Source: Escherichia coli
GTDB taxonomy: Bacteria; Pseudomonadota; Gammaproteobacteria; Enterobacterales; Enterobacteriaceae
Assembly (NCBI RefSeq): GCF_003334255.1
Contig: NZ_QOWU01000024.1
Direction: 5' to 3' (one strand)
Length of the DNA stretch: 64,000 nucleotides
The first letter of the stretch is position 1. Every line of letters begins with the position of its first letter. This document shows positions 24,314 through 29,672 of this stretch, piece after piece. Made by a program: the position numbers and the translations under genes. Below the pieces are notes generated by a model. The model was given only the letters and a program-made list of their open reading frames with translations, made no database searches and was not told the DNA's origin.

Positions 24314-25474
24314 ATGACAAATAACCCTCTGATTCCACAAAGCAAACTTCCACAACTTGGCACCACTATTTTCACCCAGATGAGCGCGCTGGCGCAGCAA
24401 CACCAGGCGATTAACCTGTCGCAAGGCTTTCCTGATTTTGATGGTCCGCGCTATTTACAGGAGCGGCTGGCGCACCACGTTGCACAGGGGGCAAACCAAT
24501 ACGCGCCCATGACCGGCGTGCAGGCCTTGCGCGAGGCGATTGCTCAGAAAACGGAACGTTTGTATGGCTATCAACCAGATGCCGATAGCGATATCACCGT
24601 AACGGCAGGGGCGACGGAAGCGTTATACGCGGCGATTACCGCACTGGTGCGCAATGGCGATGAAGTGATTTGTTTTGATCCCAGCTATGACAGTTACGCC
24701 CCCGCCATCGCGCTTTCTGGGGGAATAGTGAAGCGTATGGCACTGCAACCACCGCATTTTCGCGTTGACTGGCAGGAATTTGCCGCATTATTAAGCGAGC
24801 GCACCAGACTGGTGATCCTCAACACTCCGCATAACCCCAGTGCAACTGTCTGGCAGCAGGCTGATTTCGCCGCTTTGTGGCAGGCGATCGCCGGGCACGA
24901 GATTTTTGTCATTAGCGATGAAGTCTACGAGCACATCAACTTTTCACAACAGGGCCATGCCAGTGTGCTGGCGCATCCGCAGCTGCGTGAGCGGGCAGTG
25001 GCGGTTTCTTCATTTGGCAAGACCTATCATATGACCGGCTGGAAAGTGGGTTATTGTGTTGCGCCAGCGCCCATCAGCGCCGAAATTCGCAAGGTACATC
25101 AGTATCTGACCTTTTCGGTGAATACCCCGGCACAGCTGGCGCTTGCTGATATGCTACGTGCAGAACCTGAGCATTATCTTGCGTTACCGGACTTTTATCG
25201 CCAGAAGCGCGATATTCTGGTGAATGCTTTAAATGAAAGCCGGCTGGAGATTTTACCGTGTGAAGGTACATACTTTTTGCTGGTGGATTACAGCGCGGTT
25301 TCTACCCTGGATGATGTTGAGTTTTGCCAGTGGCTGACGCAGGAGCACGGCGTAGCGGCGATTCCGCTGTCGGTGTTTTGCGCCGATCCCTTCCCACATA
25401 AACTGATTCGTCTCTGTTTTGCCAAGAAGGAATCGACGTTGCTGGCAGCAGCTGAACGCCTGCGCCAGCTTTAG
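24314..25474 (+). CDS. ybdL: PLP-dependent methionine aminotransferase
   Basis: 386 aa class I/II aminotransferase; SFGKTYHMTGWKVGY contains the PLP lysine context; recognised as YbdL. Confidence 0.9.
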   Translation: MTNNPLIPQSKLPQLGTTIFTQMSALAQQHQAINLSQGFPDFDGPRYLQERLAHHVAQGANQYAPMTGVQALREAIAQKTERLYGYQPDADSDITVTAGATEALYAAITALVRNGDEVICFDPSYDSYAPAIALSGGIVKRMALQPPHFRVDWQEFAALLSERTRLVILNTPHNPSATVWQQADFAALWQAIAGHEIFVISDEVYEHINFSQQGHASVLAHPQLRERAVAVSSFGKTYHMTGWKVGYCVAPAPISAEIRKVHQYLTFSVNTPAQLALADMLRAEPEHYLALPDFYRQKRDILVNALNESRLEILPCEGTYFLLVDYSAVSTLDDVEFCQWLTQEHGVAAIPLSVFCADPFPHKLIRLCFAKKESTLLAAAERLRQL

Positions 25475-26104
25475 CTATTTAACCGTCCAGGCGCGGGAAT
25501 ATTGACGGTCGGCAAACAACTCTTGCAGGCCGTTAATTTGCTTCAGGCGCAGCACTTCGTCGCTGTCCATTCCCAGCTCTTTGCCAATTTTATTATCGTC
25601 CCATCCCAACTGGCTAAGTTCACGGACGATTTCCGACATGGCGGTGATTTGATGGCGTCCACGAGCGCGATTATGACGAATAGTCGCGGCGATGCGTTGA
25701 TTACGCGTACCTTCCAGACAGGTCACCGGCAAATAACCTTTTAAGCGTAATTTTAATGATGATGAGCCTTTACCAATTTCATGGCGGTGAAAACCATCCA
25801 CGATTTCCATGGCATTTTTATCCGTATGTGTGACCACAATGGGTTGGGTAAAACCATCTATTTCAATGGATTTTTGCAGCAGTTTTTTTTCGGGTGGTGC
25901 CACGTTGTTTGGGTTGTAATCATTAGGCATAAGTTGGCTGTTTTTAACCCACAGAACGCAATCCACTGGCTCTTCACGAAAGGGGCTAACCTGATGGATC
26001 GCCATGCGGATTTCATTAATCGCTTTGATGCGATCATCTTCCGGCAAGCTGGCGAGAAATTGCGTTAAATCCTGCGTTAATCGTTGTTGCATAGTATCCC
26101 CCAT
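25475..26104 (-). CDS. ybdM: ParB/sulfiredoxin-like (DGxHR) domain protein, IbrB-like
   Basis: 209 aa; motif IVVTHTDKNAMEIVDGFHRHEIG (ParB N-terminal / Srx-like DGxHR) and a basic RHNRARGRH segment; recognised as YbdM. Confidence 0.85.
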   Translation of the reverse strand: MGDTMQQRLTQDLTQFLASLPEDDRIKAINEIRMAIHQVSPFREEPVDCVLWVKNSQLMPNDYNPNNVAPPEKKLLQKSIEIDGFTQPIVVTHTDKNAMEIVDGFHRHEIGKGSSSLKLRLKGYLPVTCLEGTRNQRIAATIRHNRARGRHQITAMSEIVRELSQLGWDDNKIGKELGMDSDEVLRLKQINGLQELFADRQYSRAWTVK

Positions 26105-27297
26105 TCCTGACGTTTTCCTTTTATCCGTTCGTTATAACGCTGATAGTTCTTCGATTTTGTGGGGCTAAATGATAATGCCCGACACCAGTAATCGTTATTG
26201 AGTAAAACTTTGCATATCCGCCGCCAGGAGGGGATATCTTTCGCGCCAATGTCCCCTTGCTGGGTTTGTGGAACCTCGATGCCTTTTTTCTGATACCAGT
26301 GCAAATAAATGGCGATTTTATTGCGGTAATGCTCAGCTGTTTTTTCCGGCATGCTATTGAGCAGCAATAATGCATATTCTTGCCAGTCTAAATGTTCTGG
26401 CTTGAGGATTTTCCGATGCCCATAGAAATGATTGTCATGTCCGGCGTAAATGCCGCCACTTTTTACCCCGCTGACTCGTGCGCACATAGCAGCCCAGCGA
26501 TCCGGTTCGATAACGTGATAGAGCCATAATCCTTGTCGTTGCTCCGGGCCAAAAGGTTCGCAAATTCGCATATGACGCAGAGGAACGCCTGCCTGATACA
26601 TTAGGTTATACAGAGGGTTGCAGAGACTTTGATGATTTGCATACCAGGTCCAGATATCAGCCACTTTCCAGTCGTAAATGGGGTAAATGTACCAGCTATG
26701 ACCGCCTGGTGCGGCCGTAGTCCAGGGTTTATCGTCGGCAAAACGTTGTTTATTTAAACTGGCGATGGCGACAAAACGGTTGTAGGACTCATCCGCACGG
26801 ATGCCGATCATCATCGCCGCCGGACGTTTTTGTGAAAACCATTCGGCAAACTCACGTACAAATTGTTCGAAGGTCATGCCTGGCTGGTAAAAGGAGAAAA
26901 AGTCAGGGTCGGTTATCGCATCTTGGGGAGGTTGACGTACCCATTCGACATCAGGTTCCCAGCACTGCCATTCGGGTTGGTATTGTGAAAGGGAATTTTG
27001 CGTCGTAAGCGGGAGCGCAACCCAGTAAAACTCTTCGATGACATCGGTGTACAACTCGCGCAGGGACTGAACATAGTTAATGGTGCAAGAGAATTGCGCC
27101 TCCCAGTCGATAAACAAAACGCAGATTTTTTTGCCCATTTGTCGGGCAAGTTCGGCTGTCAGATGCAGCATTAAACCAGAGTCTTTGCCGCCAGAAAATG
27201 AGACACAAACGCGGGGTAGGGTGTTGAGTGTCCAGGTAATACGCTCTCGTGCAGCTTCCAGAATATTGAGCGGAAGAGGAATTTTATAAATAGACAT
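26077..27297 (-). CDS. ybdN: PAPS-reductase-like PP-loop ATP pyrophosphatase family protein, IbrA-like
   Basis: 406 aa; PP-loop motif VCVSFSGGKDSGLMLHL near N-terminus; recognised as YbdN; 3' end overlaps ybdM start by 28 nt. Confidence 0.85.
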   Translation of the reverse strand: MSIYKIPLPLNILEAARERITWTLNTLPRVCVSFSGGKDSGLMLHLTAELARQMGKKICVLFIDWEAQFSCTINYVQSLRELYTDVIEEFYWVALPLTTQNSLSQYQPEWQCWEPDVEWVRQPPQDAITDPDFFSFYQPGMTFEQFVREFAEWFSQKRPAAMMIGIRADESYNRFVAIASLNKQRFADDKPWTTAAPGGHSWYIYPIYDWKVADIWTWYANHQSLCNPLYNLMYQAGVPLRHMRICEPFGPEQRQGLWLYHVIEPDRWAAMCARVSGVKSGGIYAGHDNHFYGHRKILKPEHLDWQEYALLLLNSMPEKTAEHYRNKIAIYLHWYQKKGIEVPQTQQGDIGAKDIPSWRRICKVLLNNDYWCRALSFSPTKSKNYQRYNERIKGKRQEWGILCNND

Positions 27298-27443
27298 CTG
27301 AAGACGCTCTCTGAACGTTACAGGGTGATCAGTGAGATAAGTCTGTTAATTATAAAGTAAACACTGTAAAGCAGAGTGTTTTATTTTTCATTCGCGCTGT
27401 GAATAAATAGATGAAAGTTATAGTAGCTGTCTGTAGTTATATA

Positions 27444-28346
27444 TCAAAAACTCTCATTTAGACGGTCAATAAATCGGGAGAACACCAAATTATTTAAAGA
27501 AGATTTATTATAGGAAATGTAAAGCTTTATTGAAGGTAACGGATGTTCTAGTTTTATCTCTTTTAAGTTAAGAAAGTCACGGTAGGAATTATAAAGTTCA
27601 TAGGGGACTATTCCCAGTAAATCTGTAACTGCAATGCTATTAATGATTGTCAGCAAAGAGGAACCACGAAATGAGATTTTGCGATTCATAAATCTCTCGT
27701 CTATTTCCATTTGAATATCATCAACCCCTGCTGATTTAGATATTAATTGGGTGAACTCTTCTGCCATAATTTGTTCATAAGTGCTATTGTCAGTAATTCG
27801 TGGATGCCTATTACTACAAATTAGAGTATTGCGAATCGTATGCAATGGCATGCAAATGACGGAACGGCTGATCACTGGCATTTGGGTGATCACCAGATCG
27901 GCTTTGCGGTGAACCAACAGTTCTTCAGCATTCTCTGCTGACATGAGGATATCATGGCACTCAATCTCGACAGAGGAATCTTGCCGTAGGCAGCGGATCA
28001 GCATACTATTATTAGAGCAAGAAATGAGCTGAGGGCCGTAGATAATAAAGTTTTTCTTTAGTTCGGACTTATTGACTATATTAATTGTTTGTTCAAGGCC
28101 TCTGAGATTTTTCTCAAGATGGTGATGCAGATTTAACCCTGTTGTCGTCGGCGCGATACCTTTTCCTGAGCGAATGAATAAAGGGTCATTAAATTGCGCA
28201 CGTAAGCGTTGTAACGACTGGCTCACGGCTGATGGGGTGATATATAGTGATTCAGCAGCTTTGCTAATGCTTAAATGCTGGTAAATACACTCAAATATGA
28301 CAAGAAGATTTAAGTCGAACTTTTTCAAGTCGTAGAGATTGGCCAT
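27444..28346 (-). CDS. ybdO: LysR-family transcriptional regulator
   Basis: 300 aa; N-terminal HTH (SISKAAESLYITPSAVSQSLQRLR); very AT-rich coding sequence. Confidence 0.88.
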   Translation of the reverse strand: MANLYDLKKFDLNLLVIFECIYQHLSISKAAESLYITPSAVSQSLQRLRAQFNDPLFIRSGKGIAPTTTGLNLHHHLEKNLRGLEQTINIVNKSELKKNFIIYGPQLISCSNNSMLIRCLRQDSSVEIECHDILMSAENAEELLVHRKADLVITQMPVISRSVICMPLHTIRNTLICSNRHPRITDNSTYEQIMAEEFTQLISKSAGVDDIQMEIDERFMNRKISFRGSSLLTIINSIAVTDLLGIVPYELYNSYRDFLNLKEIKLEHPLPSIKLYISYNKSSLNNLVFSRFIDRLNESF

Positions 28347-28554
28347 ACACTACTCCGGTTATATTTTTCTTCCATGATATATTCACTTAATCAATGTTTT
28401 TTGCGTATATATTTTTATTGATTATGTTTTTTTGCTTAACTCAGGATTAAGTTTTTCTAAAATAGCACAGCCACTTAGGGCAGAGCGAGCAATTCATGCT
28501 TTTTTAGGATGGTTGAAAAGCAGGGATATAGTTCAACCATCCATGAATTACCTT

Positions 28555-29301: not shown

Positions 29302-29672
29302 TAATTTGTCCTTTTCAGTCAGTGCAAAAGTCGAGTAAAAGGCATAACCTATCACTGTCATAGGTAAGAGCTTAGATCAGGTGATTGCCCTTTGTTTATG
29401 AGGGTGTTGTAATCCATGTCGTTGTTGCATTTGTAAGGGCAACACCTCAGCCTGCAGGCAGGCACTGAAGATACCAAAGGGTAGTTCAGATTACACGGTC
29501 ACCTGGAAAGGGGGCCATTTTACTTTTTATCGCCGCTGGCGGTGCAAAGTTCACAAAGTTGTCTTACGAAGGTTGTAAGGTAAAACTTATCGATTTGATA
29601 ATGGAAACGCATTAGCCGAATCGGCAAAAATTGGTTACCTTACATCTCATCGAAAACACGGAGGAAGTATAG

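Follow-up and report, generated by a model that had tools for sequence, protein, structure and literature searches.

What the overlapping genes ybdN and ybdM do is the question raised by a stretch of 64,000 nucleotides from Escherichia coli (contig NZ_QOWU01000024.1 of assembly GCF_003334255.1; the whole stretch is called the window here), which holds the ybd region of E. coli K-12 and matches MG1655 at 99.9%. As a feature, ybdN-ybdM is already known and annotated. The two genes belong to those of E. coli K-12 that still lack an assigned function, and the statement of the first-pass annotation that no K-12 function is known was borne out by a literature search, which gave no paper assigning one. 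Searches on ybdN/ybdM, IbrA/IbrB, DUF3440, and phosphoadenosine phosphosulfate (PAPS) reductase with ParB, with or without SNF2, found no functional study. The analysis described here identifies ybdNM as the copy of the IbrA/IbrB module that enterobacteria carry on the chromosome and inherit vertically. The module pairs an ATP-using enzyme with a small DNA-binding protein, elsewhere occurs chiefly on phages, plasmids and pathogenicity islands, and probably acts on DNA and not in sulfur metabolism. Its range extends well outside K-12: Enterobacteriaceae have it as a core element, about 40% of E. coli genomes hold a second copy, hundreds of Klebsiella plasmids carry it, and so do many phages, in which the usual annotation is that of a sulfur 'auxiliary metabolic gene'.

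YbdN had been described in the first pass as a PP-loop protein (SGGKDS) with a PAPS-reductase-like fold, and translation and the Pfam PAPS_reduct match agree with this. The SGGKDS sequence was invariant or nearly so in 47 diverse YbdN homologs. Outside the PP-loop, conservation across the same set extended to D64xE66, several tryptophans and G165xRxxES171xxR174, with D209W210, D214, N227, Y230 and R244 as further conserved residues. No cysteine was conserved in the 47 homologs, the commonest cysteine column being occupied in 37 of them and by alanine in E. coli. An AlphaFold2 (AF2) model of YbdN built from 47 diverse homologs had a predicted local distance difference test score (pLDDT) of 89 and a predicted template modelling score (pTM) of 0.87, and the closest solved folds were flavin mononucleotide (FMN) adenylyltransferase, the adenosine phosphosulfate (APS)/PAPS reductases and CysD, at 14–21% sequence identity. 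A sequence search against solved structures gave no useful match for either YbdN or YbdM. The C-terminal DUF3440 domain was helical in the AF2 model, and no solved structural neighbour was seen for it. YbdN is a PP-loop nucleotide alpha-hydrolase of the PAPS-reductase/FMN-adenylyltransferase/CysD fold without a conserved cysteine. By analogy with other PP-loop enzymes, the canonical SGGKDS loop and the lack of cysteine point to cleavage of ATP between the alpha and beta phosphates, that is, to adenylyl transfer. Because no cysteine is conserved in the YbdN family, a CysH-type thiol mechanism and a DndC-type iron-sulfur (Fe-S) centre are both argued against. NCBIfam matches of YbdN to CysH, PAPS reductase, CysD, DndC and TilS models were all short and far under the curated cut-offs (for example, 34.8 bits against 254 for TIGR02057, 34 against 154 for PRK02090 and 24.8 against 165 for TIGR00434).

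YbdM belongs to the ParB/sulfiredoxin (Srx) superfamily and has a helix-turn-helix (HTH) of ParB/KorB type. The DGFHR motif and the basic stretch reported for it in the first pass were both recovered by translation, the basic stretch being IRHNRARG (Table 1). RefSeq names the protein 'IbrB-like domain-containing protein', Pfam gave a weak ParB_N match (3e-4) and the match to the phage family phrog_2159 was at 4e-69. In 18 IbrB sequences, N61, Y63, N64, P65 and N66 were invariant while residue 62 varied, and the D, G and R of DGFHR and the whole of IRHNRARG-H were also invariant. The same invariant residues, together with G178, M179, D182, E183 and Q189 of the HTH, do not vary over a range that runs from Enterobacteriaceae to Clostridia and Bacteroidota. 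The closest solved structural match to the YbdM part was the transcriptional repressor KorB, including its operator-bound DNA-binding domain, and the ParB domain of IbrB also matches ParB domains fused to DNA methyltransferases (phrog_498 at 2.5e-10; PADLOC MTase_II). YbdM is a small protein made up of a ParB/Srx N-domain and a ParB/KorB-type HTH, without a C-terminal dimerisation domain. It was considered and rejected as a partition ParB: it has no adjacent ParA and only 209 amino acids (aa), carries DGFHR and not GERRxRA, and scored 20.8 bits against a cut-off of 315 with the NCBIfam Noc model. With this and the CysH, CysD and DndC scores under their cut-offs, the view that the genes are not a housekeeping sulfate-assimilation or partition pair stood.

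The assignment of the two genes to an IbrA/IbrB-type dyad, also made in the first pass, was strengthened by the E-values of 1e-69 to 1e-87 with which YbdN and YbdM match the phage families phrog_2302/15645 and phrog_2159 (for YbdN, 5e-77 over residues 2–387 with phrog_2302 and 1e-86 with phrog_15645), and by the RefSeq name of ybdM. The organisation of the pair is that of the family, with PAPS_reduct and DUF3440 in one protein followed by an overlapping small ParB-like gene downstream. An exhaustive HMMER search over 1.84 billion representative proteins found 1693 clusters of the YbdN family at E<=1e-3, and 217 at E<=1e-30. Among 79 genomic loci sampled from one-genome-per-species contigs, an IbrB-type open reading frame (ORF) was clustered with IbrA in 77, and in 75 it followed IbrA on the same strand, overlapping it or lying within a few bases. 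A viral sample of 82 loci with IbrA, made up of 78 from IMG/VR (up to 55% identical to YbdN) and four from cultured phages, held an IbrB-type ORF in 74, in varying gene order.

Further genes recur beside the pair. A minimal SNF2-family helicase of about 390–420 aa (Pfam SNF2-rel_dom; phrog_62) was directly upstream in 15/79 genomic loci, from Clostridia, Alphaproteobacteria, Listeria and Chitinophaga, and was present in 27 viral loci; it adjoins the pair in four cultured phages. In 24 Bacteroidota loci the gene directly upstream of IbrA encodes a 136-aa protein, c4 (e.g. L030:1760-2167), for which neither Pfam nor PHROG gave a match and the one resemblance, to an acetyltransferase, was not significant. 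Several of the Bacteroides loci with c4 also share chromosomal neighbours encoding proteins of about 970 and about 1080 aa. A protein of about 139 aa, s6, with the signature W-x-SCEH-x-LTN ... NR-x-AW-x-GHA, was found in 23 viral loci in the orders B-s6-A, s6-A-B or A-B-s6 (e.g. L091:302-682); it had no Pfam, PHROG or PDB match, and comparison by hhalign found s6 and c4 to be unrelated. In one viral locus (L113, 8775-9992) s6 is fused to the C-terminus of IbrB, giving a 405-aa protein with an s6-like C-terminal half. Long IbrB ORFs of 367–412 aa were also found in L109, L111, L112, L115 and L121; L113 is the one whose C-terminal part was inspected. The idea that IbrA adenylates the IbrB C-terminus was dropped, as IbrB C-termini differ in both length and sequence.

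The phage copies occupy several positions. Cultured Firmicutes phages carry phrog_27058-SNF2-IbrA-IbrB between the lysis cassette and the early genes, and Flavobacterium, Mycobacterium and Arthrobacter phages carry shorter relatives just before terminase or portal genes, accompanied by more ParB-like genes and a methyltransferase. Many proteobacterial-type viral contigs have a terminase or DnaB gene within a few kb. Fusobacterium phage phiFN37 (L007:6001-12033) holds IbrA-IbrB-phrog_27058-SNF2 on one phage and, about 1.4 kb past SNF2, a separate ParB-like gene by genes for a DpdA-like queuine tRNA-ribosyltransferase and a queuosine-precursor transporter.

The enterobacterial copy is of a different standing. 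DNA of ybdNM was detected in 5421 of 5426 complete E. coli genomes as a single copy at one locus with 90–100% identity, and the order dsbG-ybdO-ybdN-ybdM-ybdL is unchanged in Klebsiella pneumoniae and Salmonella. Close orthologs with 70–85% aa identity are found in Citrobacter, Enterobacter, Klebsiella, Yokenella and Trabulsiella, amongst others. The ratio of nonsynonymous to synonymous substitution rates (dN/dS) for ybdM was about 0.10 against both Salmonella and Klebsiella; for ybdN, dS was saturated. The pair is an anciently fixed core element under purifying selection, not a variable element of a defence island. Because it is core, confined to one locus and syntenic in Klebsiella and Salmonella, the suggestion in the first pass of a defence-island or anti-mobile-element module fails for the K-12 copy. 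PADLOC 2.0 had no model for YbdN or YbdM and gave weak partial DndC and BrxP matches only, and scans of YbdN, YbdM, YbdO, the plasmid paralog, a clostridial pair, and SNF2 with the small partners returned only generic or weak matches. The horizontal acquisition proposed in the first pass can be kept only in the form of an old event: any acquisition predates the divergence of E. coli, Klebsiella and Salmonella.

A paralog of the pair makes up the accessory part of the family in enterobacteria. YbdN-like genes with about 58% identity were found by tblastn on 855 plasmid records (Klebsiella 323, Escherichia 204, Shigella 123), each followed by a 'ParB N-terminal domain' gene, and the same paralog is chromosomal in 2148/5426 complete E. 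coli genomes, including O157:H7 and UTI89. These copies are without ybdO. In a K. pneumoniae plasmid (NZ_CP140259.1; L167:9689-11550) the pair lies between fecIRA and the salmochelin genes iroBCDN, another plasmid copy adjoins an F4-like fimbrial operon, and a Salmonella plasmid copy adjoins an inverse autotransporter and a CaiF/GrlA regulator. The UTI89 copy is in an island rich in insertion sequences beside a TonB-dependent receptor gene, and the island copy of O157:H7 JEONG-1266 (L171:8936-11139) is followed by a PerC-family regulator gene, with the cah autotransporter gene about 4 kb away. In E. coli plasmid p100 (NZ_CP023358.1; L166:7904-13844) the pair is beside YadA-like adhesins, an OmpA-family gene and an S6 (SPATE-type) peptidase, and between the OmpA-family gene and ibrA lie 1.35 kb with 31.6% GC. 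The non-coding DNA upstream of the accessory copies had 25–35% GC in 5/7 loci, and 45% and 50% in the other two, while the pair genes themselves have about 50% GC. No common motif was found when the regions upstream of accessory ibrA copies and of K-12 ybdN were aligned. The copy from IMG/VR with 55% identity had no match in E. coli genomes by megablast. An anti-defence role in the leading region of F plasmids was dropped, the four contexts examined being cargo regions. The four Shigella plasmid records listed (H132-H135) contain only 10–13% YbdN fragments, two of them beside a 'ParB N-terminal domain' gene, which suggests a decayed ibrAB copy on Shigella invasion plasmids.

The family's name comes with a phenotype. 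IbrAB of ECOR-9 (the 'IbrAB genetic island') was reportedly defined, by Sandt, Hopper and Hill in 2002, as an activator of prophage eib genes, and the SEED label for the family is 'co-activators of prophage gene expression'. As Eib proteins belong to the YadA-like adhesins, the p100 context, a single case, fits the link between IbrAB and eib. IbrA and IbrB of ECOR-9 have the same make-up as ybdNM, namely PAPS_reduct and DUF3440 followed by an overlapping ParB-like/HTH gene. The two differ in that the IbrAB type is accessory, carried by islands and plasmids without ybdO, whereas ybdNM is core and syntenic and has its own LysR repressor; activation of eib is a phenotype reported for ECOR-9 IbrAB only.

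In K-12, H-NS and the LysR repressor encoded next to the pair, YbdO (also called CitR), keep ybdNM silenced. YbdO passes the NCBIfam CitR equivalog model NF047710 (467 bits; cut-off 400). The H-NS silencing expected in the first pass is experimentally established for ybdO, which is bound and repressed by H-NS in K-12, SE11 and SE15, is treated as an H-NS-bound horizontally transferred gene, and has a transcription start 107 bp upstream of its start codon with mapped upstream and downstream H-NS elements (PMC4720273). Repression of ybdNM by YbdO comes from a study combining ChIP-exo (chromatin immunoprecipitation followed by exonuclease digestion) and RNA-seq, in which YbdO was renamed CitR, a ChIP-exo peak was found upstream of citR-ybdNM, and deletion of citR raised ybdN by log2 5.5 and ybdM by log2 2.5 (PMC9068703). 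The same deletion induced the whole cys regulon (cysDNC, cysJI, cysAWU) and the flagellar regulon, with effects of CitR and of YbdNM not separated (PMC9068703). In cells with a CTX-M-15 plasmid, YbdM protein was up 29-fold; its over-expression carried a 10% growth cost, the protein being called 'completely uncharacterized' by the authors, and on deletion of ybdM a resistance plasmid became slightly costlier (PMC8764527).

The reading that we tentatively favour, giving it a probability somewhat below even, is that ybdNM/IbrAB is a DNA-targeted, adenylation-based module, the visible effect of which is expression of silenced foreign DNA. YbdM would bind double-stranded DNA, probably in a nucleotide-dependent manner as ParB, KorB and VirB do, and would position or activate YbdN. 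YbdN would then use ATP, through alpha-beta cleavage and transfer of AMP, to activate a phosphate or carbonyl in DNA or in a DNA-bound target, and a minimal SNF2 translocase or a small accessory protein may help in many of the copies from phages and bacteria. The changed state of the DNA would let silenced, horizontally acquired genes be expressed, as are the eib genes of ECOR-9 with IbrAB; a phage-borne module would have phage DNA as its target, acting from an early or nin-type region. DNA as the target is suggested by the SNF2 neighbours, by the match of IbrB to methyltransferase-fused ParB domains and by the Dnd and Dpd precedents, DndB/DndC and DpdB/DpdA each combining a ParB-like protein with a DNA-modifying enzyme (PMC12839542). 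The link to silenced foreign DNA is in turn suggested by eib activation, by the virulence-type neighbours and by the AT-rich upstream regions of accessory copies. A more specific proposal, speculative and on balance unlikely, is that IbrA/IbrB, optionally with SNF2 or one of the two small proteins, forms an unrecognised, cysteine-independent, adenylation-based DNA-modification or chromatin-switch system. Here a KorB-like DNA binder would deliver the PP-loop enzyme to duplex DNA, where adenylation would allow substitution of a backbone phosphate or base carbonyl; phages, virulence plasmids and islands would mark their own DNA and switch on H-NS-silenced cargo, and in Enterobacteriaceae one copy would have become fixed, with a LysR repressor of its own.

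Several points weigh against a DNA-directed adenylation module. No member of the family has a demonstrated biochemical activity, DNA adduct or protein-protein contact, and the pair is without the cognate restriction or reader genes that a self/non-self DNA mark requires. The substrates of the closest solved folds are small molecules (FMN, sulfate, APS) and not nucleic acids, SNF2 is absent from every enterobacterial IbrA/IbrB copy, and the eib phenotype could equally come from DNA binding alone. Induction of the cys regulon in the citR deletion could point to sulfur or nucleotide pools, and neither this nor the flagellar induction is explained by a DNA model. As a stand-in for the complex, YbdN and YbdM were also modelled by AF2 as one chain joined by a 30-aa linker, using 18 paired sequences. 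The fused model had a pTM of only 0.55, so a physical YbdN-YbdM complex is not established; its YbdM core had a pLDDT of about 75–92 and its HTH region 48–67. Beta-strands at YbdN 5-11 and YbdM 204-208, seen in the fused model and not in YbdN alone, are a hint only.

The main rival explanation, which we consider possible though rather doubtful, is a purely non-covalent regulator, in which YbdM/IbrB would be a nucleotide-switched DNA clamp like VirB or KorB that spreads and counteracts H-NS or contacts RNA polymerase. YbdN/IbrA would then be a mere partner binding, making or consuming the nucleotide ligand, and the DNA would undergo no chemical change. KorB, down to its operator-bound DNA-binding domain, is the closest solved relative of the YbdM part, trans-activation of eib is the sole reported phenotype of the family (SEED label; Sandt 2002 as cited), and the accessory copies adjoin AT-rich virulence-type cargo and PerC and CaiF/GrlA regulators. 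VirB, a ParB-like, CTP-dependent anti-silencer of the Shigella virulence plasmid, also counts in its favour. A clamp of this kind would, however, leave unexplained a 400-aa enzyme with an invariant PP-loop and GxRxxES that is kept with IbrB in about 95% of loci, as well as the recruitment of an SNF2 translocase or other small proteins, and YbdM, with 209 aa, lacks the C-terminal dimerisation domain of ParB/KorB clamps and has DGFHR where GERRxRA would be expected. The abundance of the family on phages, IMG/VR contigs and plasmids suits a conflict system instead, either bacterial defence against phages or plasmids, or phage and plasmid anti-defence or self-protection, such as by an anti-restriction DNA mark, with the core enterobacterial copy as a domesticated relic. 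The moron position after the lysis genes in Firmicutes phages, the resemblance of the SNF2 partner at a generic domain level to Zorya, Dpd and DISARM helicases, the weak local similarity of YbdN to DndC, BrxP and SspD, and the slightly raised cost of a resistance plasmid on ybdM deletion (PMC8764527) are all in line with it. We nevertheless think it improbable, as PADLOC is without a model for IbrA, IbrB or the small partners, no conserved nuclease, toxin or membrane-protein effector was found in IbrA/IbrB neighbourhoods, the K-12 copy is core, single-locus and silenced and not variable, and the pairs on F-type plasmids sit among cargo and not leading-region genes in four contexts.

A substrate other than DNA is about as improbable, or slightly more so. 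YbdN might adenylate an RNA or tRNA base (cf. TilS, TtuA, ThiI), a small molecule (in the manner of FMN adenylyltransferase and CysD) or a protein (like the QueC-like Cap9), with YbdM as a ParB/Srx-fold kinase or NTPase subunit resembling sulfiredoxin, SbnI or free serine kinase. Such a role would suit induction of the cys regulon when ybdNM is derepressed (PMC9068703), but it sits poorly with the invariant ParB/KorB-type HTH kept in YbdM, with a double-stranded DNA translocase as the recurrent third gene, and with phage copies found among replication, nin-type and packaging genes. Far less probable still, and effectively refuted already, is a genuine sulfur-assimilation enzyme, that is, a CysH-like PAPS/APS reductase. 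The Pfam PAPS_reduct match and the RefSeq product name of ybdN, 'phosphoadenosine phosphosulfate reductase', favour it, as does the counting of the DUF3440 clade among viral CysH auxiliary metabolic genes (bioRxiv 10.1101/2021.01.05.425418). Against this, the NCBIfam CysH and PAPS-reductase models gave 25–35 bits where the cut-offs are 154–254, the conserved catalytic and Fe-S cysteines are missing, the loop is a canonical ATP-type SGGKDS, and the obligate partner is a DNA-binding ParB-like protein. E. coli, moreover, already has cysH. YbdN was rejected as a CysH-type reductase on the same scores and the same missing cysteines, and the lack of conserved cysteines together with the obligate ParB-like partner argues that the viral 'cysH' label is wrong for the DUF3440 clade.

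The first pass had likened the pair to the PAPS-reductase-like and ParB-like proteins of DNA-modification systems. As a statement of how the pair may work, this is reasonable; membership of those systems fails. DndB/DndC likewise combine a ParB/Srx-fold DGxHR protein with a PAPS-reductase-fold PP-loop ATP pyrophosphatase acting on DNA. In PADLOC, however, YbdN matched DndC at 2e-5 over residues 155-254 only, and BrxP at 1e-4 over residues 29-102; the DndC model was matched over about 70–100 residues only, TIGR03183 gave 22 bits against a cut-off of 290, DndC is without DUF3440, and YbdN is without the Fe-S/cysteine motifs of DndC. Genes for a cysteine desulfurase, DndD/E, SspB/C or BREX are absent from the vicinity, the neighbours being ybdL, ybdO and dsbG, and YbdN was rejected as a DndC/SspD/BrxP sulfurtransferase on the partial matches, the lack of conserved cysteines and the lack of co-located system genes. 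In DpdA/DpdB and in ParB-methyltransferase fusions, a ParB-like NTPase/DNA-binding domain also serves a DNA-modifying enzyme, but in ybdNM a PP-loop enzyme takes the catalytic part, in place of a transglycosylase or methyltransferase. The SNF2 helicase DpdE belongs to the Dpd system. A Dpd system was rejected for ybdNM, as the window locus has no gene of the tRNA-guanine transglycosylase (TGT) family and the ParB and TGT pair of phiFN37 is a separate module.

Likeness to KorB, VirB and the ParB CTP-switch clamps lies in the layout of a ParB N-domain with an HTH, KorB being the best solved match of the YbdM part, and a regulatory or anti-silencing read-out as in these proteins is plausible. YbdM differs from them in its short length, missing dimerisation domain and DGFHR motif, and in having no ParA or KorA partner; its resemblance to the CTP-switch clamps, read from the motifs DGFHR and HNRAR, appears to be at motif level only. 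Lambda NinC (phrog_424) is another PAPS-reductase-fold protein of unknown function from the nin or early region of temperate phages, but YbdN matches phrog_424 much more weakly (1.6e-17) than phrog_2302 (5e-77). NinC is a PAPS-reductase-family protein of the nin region, dispensable for lytic growth in earlier literature tabulated in a study in which CRISPR interference (CRISPRi) scored nin-region knock-downs, ninC included, as essential (PMC10695390). FMN adenylyltransferase (FAD synthase), CysD and the APS/PAPS reductases differ from YbdN in their small-molecule substrates and in having neither DUF3440 nor a DNA-binding partner.

The evidence tells against annotating the pair as sulfur metabolism or classing it with phosphorothioation or known defence systems, and it narrows the question to a DNA-directed ATP-pyrophosphatase mechanism. 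Added here are the findings that ybdNM is core and syntenic and that no cysteine is conserved, the placing of both proteins among known structures, the SNF2, s6 and c4 partners, the IbrB-s6 fusion, and the size and contexts of the accessory paralog of virulence plasmids and islands. Counting of the DUF3440 clade as viral 'cysH' metabolism is not supported by the present evidence. New DNA chemistry or anti-silencing, if true, would matter for phage biology, for the regulation of virulence plasmids and for the metagenomic counting of viral metabolic genes.

The positions of ybdM, ybdN and ybdO and the 28-nt overlap given in the first pass are identical to those in the ORF list (Table 1). The three genes are co-directional on the minus strand, flanked by dsbG/ahpCF on one side and ybdL/ybdH/ybdD/cstA on the other. 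The second in-frame ATG of ybdM is Met5 (window 26090-26104) and is preceded by a Shine-Dalgarno-like run, GGGGGA, which gives Met5 a better Shine-Dalgarno spacing than the annotated start has, so that the true start and the length of the overlap (28 or 16 nt) are uncertain. With longest-ORF calling, the 28-nt overlap was kept in 11/11 enterobacterial orthologous loci examined and is not due to chance; outside the enterobacterial orthologs the commonest IbrA/IbrB overlap is a 4-nt ATGA. Because overlap or abutment is conserved across orthologs, translational coupling is plausible, in keeping with the co-translation proposed in the first pass. The AT-rich block described there from ybdN through ybdO is strongly marked for ybdO (38.6% GC, with flanking intergenic regions at 32–34%) and only moderately so for ybdN (47.6%) and ybdM (46.8%), which are 4–5 points under the window mean of 51.8% and near dsbG (46.0%); cstA, ybdH and ybdL have 54–57%. 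Promoter and terminator scans showed no enrichment over shuffled sequence, the sigma-70-like pair being no commoner than in the shuffles.

Table 1. Coordinates in the window of the ybdO-ybdN-ybdM genes, their intergenic regions, and the domains and motifs of YbdN and YbdM
Feature	Position	Strand	Remarks
ybdM coding sequence	25475..26104	-	209 aa; IbrB-type ParB/Srx and HTH protein; ORF list
Predicted helix-turn-helix, DNKIGKELGMDSDEVLRLKQI	25535..25597	-	YbdM residues about 170-190
IRHNRARG	25658..25681	-	YbdM residues 142-149, invariant; putative ParB box III counterpart, from sequence
DGFHR, ParB/Srx GxxR-type nucleotide-pocket motif	25784..25798	-	YbdM residues 103-107; translation
NDYNPN motif	25907..25924	-	YbdM residues 61-66; translation
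Overlap of ybdN 3' end and ybdM 5' end	26077..26104	-	28 nt; 16 nt if Met5 is the ybdM start
ybdN coding sequence	26077..27297	-	406 aa; IbrA-type PP-loop protein; ORF list
DUF3440, all-helical C-terminal domain specific to the IbrA family	26146..26589	-	YbdN residues 237-384; Pfam 5e-23
PAPS-reductase-like PP-loop alpha/beta domain	26596..27210	-	YbdN residues 30-234; Pfam PAPS_reduct 1e-13
PP-loop SGGKDS	27178..27195	-	YbdN residues 35-40; translation
ybdO-ybdN intergenic region	27298..27443	-	34% GC
Sigma-70-like hexamer pair, ybdO-ybdN intergenic region	27447-27420	-	Consensus match only
ybdO (citR)	27444..28346	-	300 aa; AT-rich LysR-type repressor of ybdNM, itself H-NS-repressed
dsbG-ybdO intergenic region	28347..28554	-	32% GC; ybdO promoter and upstream H-NS element

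Two further observations concern the flanks of these genes. The convergent genes ybdL (+) and ybdM (-) end in stop codons that abut at 25474/25475 with zero intergenic bases, so their transcripts must overlap, and ybdL/ybdM has been catalogued (PMC12288877) as a convergent excludon. On the other side, the dsbG-ahpC intergenic region holds an Rfam match to the enterobacterial small RNA STnc70 at 29435-29528 (+), with 42.7 bits against a gathering score of 40.

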